Origin: Escherichia coli
GTDB lineage: Bacteria > Pseudomonadota > Gammaproteobacteria > Enterobacterales > Enterobacteriaceae
Assembly: GCF_003334305.1 (NCBI RefSeq)
Contig: NZ_QOWS01000004.1
Reading direction: 5' to 3' (one strand)
DNA: 64,000 nt
Every line of letters starts with the position of its first letter. The first letter of the stretch is position 1. Made by a program: the position numbers and the translations under genes. Under the pieces are notes generated by a model. The model did not search any database and had not been told where the DNA came from. It saw nothing but the letters and a program-made list of their open reading frames with translations. Positions 36,103 through 37,201 of the stretch are shown here, one piece after another.

Positions 36103-37201
36103 TCATAACCCTGCTTTCAAACTTGCTTCGATAAATTGATCCAGGCTGCCGTCCAGCACGGCCTGCGTGTTGCGGGTTTCTACCCCGGTACGCAGATCTT
36201 TAATGCGGGAGTCATCAAGGACATAAGAACGAATCTGGCTGCCCCAGCCGATGTCGGATTTGTTATCTTCCATCGCCTGTTTCTCGGCATTTTTCTTCTG
36301 CATCTCCAGTTCATAAAGCTTCGCTTTCATCTGCTTCATGGCCTGGTCTTTGTTCTTGTGCTGGGAACGGTCGTTCTGGCATTGGGTCACGATCCCGGTT
36401 GGGATGTGGGTAATACGCACCGCAGATTCGGTACGGTTAACGTGCTGACCGCCCGCGCCGGACGCGCGATAAACGTCAATGCGCAGATCCGCCGGGTTGA
36501 TTTCGATATCAATATCATCATCAACTTCCGGGTAAACAAACGCAGAGCTGAACGATGTGTGGCGACGACCGCCGGAGTCAAACGGGCTTTTACGCACCAG
36601 GCGGTGAACGCCAGTTTCTGTACGCAGCCAGCCGTAAGCGTAATCGCCGGAGATTTTGATCGTCACGGATTTAATACCCGCCACTTCACCTTCCGACTCT
36701 TCGATGATTTCAGTTTTGAAACCACGCGATTCTGCCCAGCGCAGATACATACGCTCAAGCATGCTCGCCCAGTCCTGTGCTTCCGTACCGCCAGACCCCG
36801 CCTGAATATCGAGGTAGCAGTCGGCGCTGTCATATTCGCCAGAGAACATACGGCGGAACTCAAGCTGCGCCAGTTTTTCTTCCAGGGCGTCGAGTTCAGC
36901 AACGGCTTCGTTAAAGGTTTCTTCGTCGTCAGCTTCTACAGCCAGTTCCAGCAGACCAGAAACATCTTCCAGCCCCTGTTTCATTTGGTCGAGGGTGTCG
37001 ACAACGGCTTCGAGGGAGGAACGCTCTTTACCCAGCGCCTGTGCGCGTTCGGGTTCGTTCCAGACATCCGGCTGTTCCAGCTCGGCGTTTACTTCTTCCA
37101 GACGCTCTTTCTTGGCGTCGTAGTCAAAGATACCCCCTAAGAACGTCGGAGCGTTCCGTGAGGTCCTGAATGCGATTATTTACCGGATTAATTTCAAACA
37201 T
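36103..37201 (-). CDS. prfB: Peptide chain release factor 2, with programmed +1 frameshift
   Basis: Minus-strand ATG at 37201 encodes [25 protein letters not shown], then AGGGGGTATCTTTGAC; the +1 frame continues as track ORF 36103..36984 and contains SPF and GGQ motifs. Total 1099 nt = 365 codons + stop + 1. Confidence 0.93.
37123..37129 (-). other. prfB +1 ribosomal frameshift site (CTT TGA C) with upstream internal SD
   Basis: Minus strand reads AGG GGG TAT CTT TGA C; in-frame UGA after codon 25. Confidence 0.9.

Follow-up and report, generated by a model that had tools for sequence, protein, structure and literature searches.

An intact Escherichia coli prfB gene with the autoregulatory programmed +1 ribosomal frameshift

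Layout of the prfB locus and identity of its product

Within the window, that is, the whole 64,000-nt stretch of DNA that was analysed, the minus strand carries a complete prfB gene, encoding release factor RF2, and immediately downstream of it lysS, encoding lysine--tRNA ligase (Table 1). The coding sequence of prfB is divided between two reading frames. The zero frame opens at the ATG, runs through 25 codons and is closed by an in-frame UGA, beyond which frame 0 contains 23 further stops, the next of them at codon 58. The +1 frame holds a single upstream stop, at codon 7, besides its own terminator, and no ATG, GTG or TTG occurs in it between this upstream stop and Met73 (36984). When the T at 37126 is skipped, the two segments join into one protein of 365 residues.

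At the junction, the components of the cassette are arranged head to tail: a Shine-Dalgarno-like hexamer, a single TAT codon acting as spacer, the slippery CTT together with the T that follows it, and the UGA in its weak UGA-C context. The preliminary description, which left the strand of the gene unstated, had placed an internal Shine-Dalgarno sequence 3 nt upstream of CUU, an in-frame UGA next to it and the remaining 340 codons in the +1 frame, and these statements hold to the nucleotide, the UGA being codon 26 and the +1 frame counting exactly 340 codons from its first GAC. It had also described codons 1-25 as being followed by the canonical site; every element is indeed present, but the motif overlaps codons 21-26 and does not lie behind codon 25. 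Its warning that the ORF track can mislead annotation was well founded, as the program-made list breaks prfB into a 25-aa ORF (37124..37201) and a 293-aa ORF (36103..36984), the latter truncated at Met73.

Table 1 Features of the prfB locus and its surroundings, in window coordinates.
Feature	Position	Strand	Details
prfB (RF2), complete	36103..37201	minus	1099 nt = 3n+1; two frames; 365-aa product
Zero-frame segment	37124..37201	minus	ATG (37201..37199), codons 1-25, in-frame UGA as codon 26
Full motif CTTAGGGGGTATCTTTGAC	37141..37123	minus	read as CTT AGG GGG TAT CTT TGA C
Internal Shine-Dalgarno-like AGGGGG	37133..37138	minus	codons 22-23
3-nt spacer UAU (TAT)	37130..37132	minus	codon 24; E-site codon at the moment of the predicted shift
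Slippery CUU U	37126..37129	minus	Leu codon 25 (37129..37127) plus U of UGA (37126), the skipped base
RF2-specific stop in weak context UGA-C	37123..37126	minus	TGA 37126..37124, C 37123
First +1-frame codon GAC	37125..37123	minus	Asp26
+1-frame segment	36103..37125	minus	residues 26-365, exactly 340 sense codons; stop TGA 36105..36103
SPF tripeptide	36580..36588	minus	residues 205-207; located in the joined product
Codon 246 GCG (Ala)	36463..36465	minus	from comparison with K-12 MG1655
GGQ motif	36445..36453	minus	residues 250-252; located in the joined product
lysS (lysine--tRNA ligase)	34576..36093	minus	downstream neighbour of prfB
Conserved stem-loop, recJ-prfB intergenic leader	37243..37271	minus	fold z-score -3.9; 10 pairs
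Conserved CTATAAA box	37280..37274	minus	just 5' of the leader stem-loop

The joined product contains both the SPF tripeptide, the stop-codon recognition motif of RF2, and the GGQ motif, which serves peptidyl-tRNA hydrolysis. Against the NCBIfam model TIGR00020 (prfB) it scores 525.9 bits (cut-off 370), with a match that spans residues 12-362 and thereby crosses the junction, and it stays under the cut-offs of the RF1 models (303.8 against 423.25 for prfA; 305.7 against 400 for PRK00591). By the curated NCBIfam cut-off, the joined product is the class I release factor RF2. A comparison with RF2 proteins, which the preliminary description had proposed as a check, bears this out: the product aligns over residues 1-365 with solved E. 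coli RF2 chains (PDB 1gqe_A, 1ml5_Z and others), which start MFEINPV..., with ...RGYLDYDAK... running across the junction.

Below prfB, the ATG of lysS lies 9 nt past the prfB stop, and the Shine-Dalgarno sequence of lysS (GAGGA) overlaps the prfB TGA. The terminator of prfB is itself a UGA (TGAG; 36093..36105 region, minus strand), a stop read by RF2; in the 80 related loci considered below, the terminal stop is TGA in 37, TAA in 39 and TAG in 4. On the opposite strand, two open frames face prfB (36136..37140, +, 334 aa) and lysS (34693..36108, +, 471 aa). An NCBIfam search of these two antisense frames gave no match, and both are most probably shadow ORFs of prfB and lysS, which are highly expressed.

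The locus in E. coli genomes and in K-12

Many E. coli chromosomes match the 1401-nt region around the gene with 100% identity, and each of the 5426 complete genomes has one copy of it (5426/5426). Over the first 112 nt, the two-frame layout is likewise found in 5426/5426 complete genomes, in 5419 of them at 99% identity or above. Over 61 nt around the site, 4408 genomes match the window exactly, and one or two differences are seen in 1018; among the matches listed, the difference is a synonymous change at codon 27 (TAC -> TAT). On identical DNA, RefSeq annotates prfB as a two-piece CDS with 'programmed frameshift' as its note; the gene order there is xerD-dsbC-recJ-prfB-lysS-idi. A single prfB copy among the 5426 sits on a record labelled plasmid instead of chromosome, probably a mislabelled replicon.

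In E. coli K-12 MG1655, which we take to be the strain background of the experimental work summarised in PMC12421855, prfB (b2891) is also annotated as a two-piece CDS. Between the window and MG1655, no base differs in the recJ-prfB leader or in the first 122 nt of the gene, which take in the whole cassette; the operon context xerD-dsbC-recJ-prfB-lysS is shared, and 364 of the 365 RF2 residues agree. The sole amino-acid difference lies at residue 246, which is Ala (GCG) here and Thr (ACG) in MG1655. The literature regards Ala246, found in B and MRE600 strains, as the E. coli wild type and links Thr246, a K-12 variant, to weaker termination (PMC1849895; PMC11903333; PMC10521639). In the genome collection, the exact 59-mer around codon 246 occurs in the window (Ala) version in at least 3046 genomes and in the K-12 (Thr) version in at least 338, both counts being lower bounds since the 28-nt word of megablast missed 1009 genomes; among the matches listed, nearly every genome with the K-12 Thr246 59-mer is a laboratory derivative of K-12. 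The common allele in E. coli is Ala246, with Thr246 a peculiarity of K-12, and the window therefore stems from a non-K-12 strain bearing the more active RF2.

One assembly departs from the two-frame layout. In E. coli BH100 substr. MG2014 (NZ_CP024650.2; L084:1101-2198), the G5 run of the cassette has lost 1 nt (GGGGG -> GGGG). With this deletion the in-frame UGA is gone and the two prfB frames run on as one (...LRGIFDYD...), annotated in that assembly as a plain CDS of 1098 nt. The fused allele is a singleton among the 5426 genomes and reflects either an assembly error in the homopolymer or a rare genuine loss of RF2 autoregulation.

Constraint on the frameshift site and rival explanations

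One scan of a species-representative genome collection provided 80 loci from Enterobacterales, Vibrionales and Pasteurellales, with 80-99% protein identity. In all 80, the zero frame is stopped at codon 26 (codon 27 in two Providencia loci), GGGGG-TAY-CTT-TGA-C is found with invariant spacing, and the +1 frame counts exactly 340 codons. The prfB gene of Providencia vermicola (L040 and L044, ~2495-2510) starts one codon earlier (ATG ACG TTT...), with the cassette unchanged. Directly downstream on the same strand, lysS is found in 79 of the 80 loci, at the 9-nt spacing in 47; an uncultured bacterium bin (L079, CAJMPC010000037.1) is the sole related locus without any lysS match.

The window and the 80 loci together gave 81 sequences for an analysis of codon columns, which comprised 202 columns with an invariant amino acid and more than one possible codon. 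Only 3 of the 202 hold a single codon throughout, namely codons 23 (GGG), 25 (CTT) and 26 (GAC), all three within the cassette. Codon 25 is CTT in 81/81 despite six Leu codons, whereas none of the 20 other invariant-Leu columns keeps to one codon (0/20); codon 26 is GAC in 81/81 though GAT is synonymous, and all 15 other invariant-Asp columns alternate between GAC and GAT (0/15). Codon 23 is GGG in 81/81, against 0/20 of the other invariant-Gly columns, and the GGGGG core is invariant in the 81 sequences, with A or C as the preceding base of the Shine-Dalgarno sequence. Between these fixed positions, codon 24 is TAT in 68 sequences and TAC in 13. The longest invariant nucleotide run in the whole of prfB is CTTTGACT and the second longest is GGGGGTA; only the wobble base of codon 24 separates them. 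This pattern reflects purifying selection on the mRNA sequence itself, beyond protein coding, and it falls exactly on the Shine-Dalgarno core, the slippery CUU and the UGA-C. The motif by itself is only mildly improbable in 64 kb: with at most one mismatch, the 15-mer GGGGGNNNCTTTGAC has an expectation of 0.30 matches, and one or more turned up in 25 of 100 shuffles. The window contains a single match to GGGGGNNNCTTTGAC, which is exact and located at the frame switch. The comparative evidence is what decides the matter.

A break in frame of this kind could be a sequencing or assembly error, or the mark of a prfB pseudogene; assembly errors are most often single-base indels, and the BH100 assembly differs by one G in the very G5 run concerned. 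The two-frame layout, however, recurs in every E. coli genome over the first 112 nt and in every one of the other-species loci, the codons of the frameshift site are the most conserved in prfB, the +1 segment is intact, and the fused BH100 allele stands alone. RF2 is, moreover, essential, which further weakens the pseudogene variant, and error or decay is left with a negligible probability. No likelier is a pair of independent cistrons, in which a leader peptide of 25 codons would precede a +1-frame protein with its own initiation and no frameshift would occur. The program list does contain two separate ORFs, and AGGGGG could in principle serve as an initiation Shine-Dalgarno sequence, but no ATG, GTG or TTG precedes Met73, so that independent initiation would cost 72 residues, and both the TIGR00020 match and the solved RF2 chains, with their MFEINPV... 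start and RGYLDYD, continue across the junction. Decoding of the UGA as Trp or Sec, by readthrough or recoding in frame 0 and again with no frameshift, would be favoured by the weak UGA-C context and by the leakiness of UGA, the highest of any E. coli stop codon; yet the frame entered in this way meets its 23 further stops from codon 58 on and encodes nothing RF2-like, the +1 frame alone giving RF2. This is the least probable of the alternatives, lower even than the two preceding ones, and a frame-0 readthrough peptide is at most a minor by-product.

The frames could also be reconciled in the transcript, if RNA polymerase slipped on the G5 run and dropped one G with no shift of the ribosome. 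A G5 homopolymer does lie at the site, and the BH100 allele demonstrates that the loss of one G fuses the frames. Such a loss would, however, yield ...LRGIFDYD..., and the deposited sequences of RF2 structures read ...LRGYLDYD.... Polymerase slippage also leaves unexplained the frozen CTT, TGA and following C in the 81 sequences, as well as the finding that the stop is always one readable by RF2 (PMC12421855), and the literature, so far as it is represented by refs 12, 14, 18 and 19 of PMC12421855, attributes the shift to the ribosome, including pairing of the Shine-Dalgarno sequence with 16S rRNA. Correction at the level of the transcript is as improbable as assembly error or separate cistrons. 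The locus is almost certainly an ordinary, fully intact E. coli prfB with an autoregulatory programmed +1 ribosomal frameshift. The intact shift that the preliminary description had recognised is upheld by the anatomy, the RF2 identity of the product, the RefSeq annotation, the identity with K-12 and the nucleotide-level selection in the 80 related loci, all of which agree, and no result of the analysis speaks against it.

The prfB frameshift is not new: it has been textbook knowledge since 1985-86, when it was first described in E. coli (Craigen et al. 1985; Craigen & Caskey 1986, as cited in PMC12421855, which also cites Weiss et al. 1987 and 1988 and Marquez et al. 2004 as primary references). 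The relevance of the present locus is one of annotation quality. A naive ORF caller breaks an essential gene into ORFs of 25 and 293 codons, the second of them truncated; recoding must therefore be modelled explicitly, as RefSeq already does. The comparative result is a clean illustration of selection on mRNA rather than protein, and it confirms published surveys without extending them.

Frameshift mechanism and the recJ-prfB leader

In the textbook mechanism, the ribosome would initiate at the ATG (37201) and translate 25 codons, until Leu-tRNA occupies CUU in the P site and the A site presents UGA-C, a weak stop recognised by RF2 alone. With RF2 plentiful, termination would occur at the UGA and a 25-residue peptide would be released. 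With RF2 scarce, the ribosome would pause, and the AGGGGG located 3 nt upstream would pair with the anti-Shine-Dalgarno sequence at the 3' end of 16S rRNA. This pairing would destabilise or displace the E-site tRNA on UAU, the peptidyl-tRNA-Leu would slip from CUU to UUU, and GAC (Asp) would enter the A site, after which a total of 340 more codons would be translated to complete the 365-residue RF2. Since RF2 would end translation at the UGA when abundant, it would repress its own synthesis. The pairing of Shine-Dalgarno and anti-Shine-Dalgarno sequences, the slippage of the tRNA, the dependence on RF2 concentration and the E-site effect are taken from PMC12421855 and PMC2377451, the latter being the source of the E-site and Shine-Dalgarno kinetics. 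In E. coli, frameshifting is efficient and declines as RF2 rises (PMC12421855); for the present strain, we infer the efficiency and the response to RF2 from the identity of its cassette with that of K-12.

A survey of 12,753 genomes found the prfB frameshift kept in 64%, defining it by a premature stop near the 5' end of prfB, which is UGA, rarely UAA and never UAG (PMC12421855). Every part of the bacterial motif of that survey is present here near codon 26 (AGGGGG, the 3-nt spacer, CTTT, TGA and a C after it), and nothing differs. The E. coli site is the archetype behind the consensus. RNA folding of prfB nt 1-142 gave z = -0.13, no sign of a stimulatory structure, which is consistent with a +1 shift driven by the stop codon. 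The -1 shift of dnaX takes place on an A AAA AAG heptamer, needs a downstream stem-loop and has an internal Shine-Dalgarno-like stimulator. Such a stimulator is common to both systems; the prfB shift, in contrast, is +1 and would be driven by a slow stop codon, without significant predicted local RNA structure.

Rfam scans of the locus in E-value mode and of the whole window in gathering mode found no family at the site, only mir-124 and Erse at chance level, and Rfam appears to hold no model for the prfB frameshift element. Elsewhere in the window, Rfam and ARAGORN place 6S RNA (ssrS; 56781..56964, +), tandem copies of the SIB RNA antitoxin (57613..57763, +, and 58005..58155, +) and tRNA-Gly(CCC) (84..157, -), all unrelated to the frameshift.

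Upstream of the gene, the recJ-prfB intergenic leader contains a stable, conserved stem-loop, with a conserved CTATAAA box just on its 5' side. Among 17 Enterobacteriaceae loci, 4 of the 10 pairs of the stem show compensatory changes, and the pairing covers 92.9% of the cells, while controls with slid partners reach no more than 54.7%; the covariation score was reached by none of 500 shuffles. A run of T follows the hairpin on the plus strand only. A scan of 36000..37700 for consensus promoters and terminators gave nothing above the expectation from shuffles: its sole promoter-like match lies inside prfB, with none for prfB itself, and its one terminator-like match coincides with the inner stem of that hairpin when the plus strand is read. 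No relevant report of a mapped transcription start for prfB-lysS turned up in a literature search. The hairpin may represent a stem-loop at the 5' end of the prfB-lysS mRNA, downstream of a -10-like box, or the recJ terminator.

Two speculative ideas arise here, and taken jointly they are improbable, though far less so than the rival explanations weighed above. The hairpin and the CTATAAA box might form an undescribed cis-element for prfB-lysS transcription or mRNA stability, and the efficiency of frameshifting and the RF2 set-point might lie below the K-12 values, given a more active Ala246 RF2 acting on the same cassette; older literature may cover either. If the former were true, the leader element would constitute a second regulatory layer on top of the prfB frameshift.
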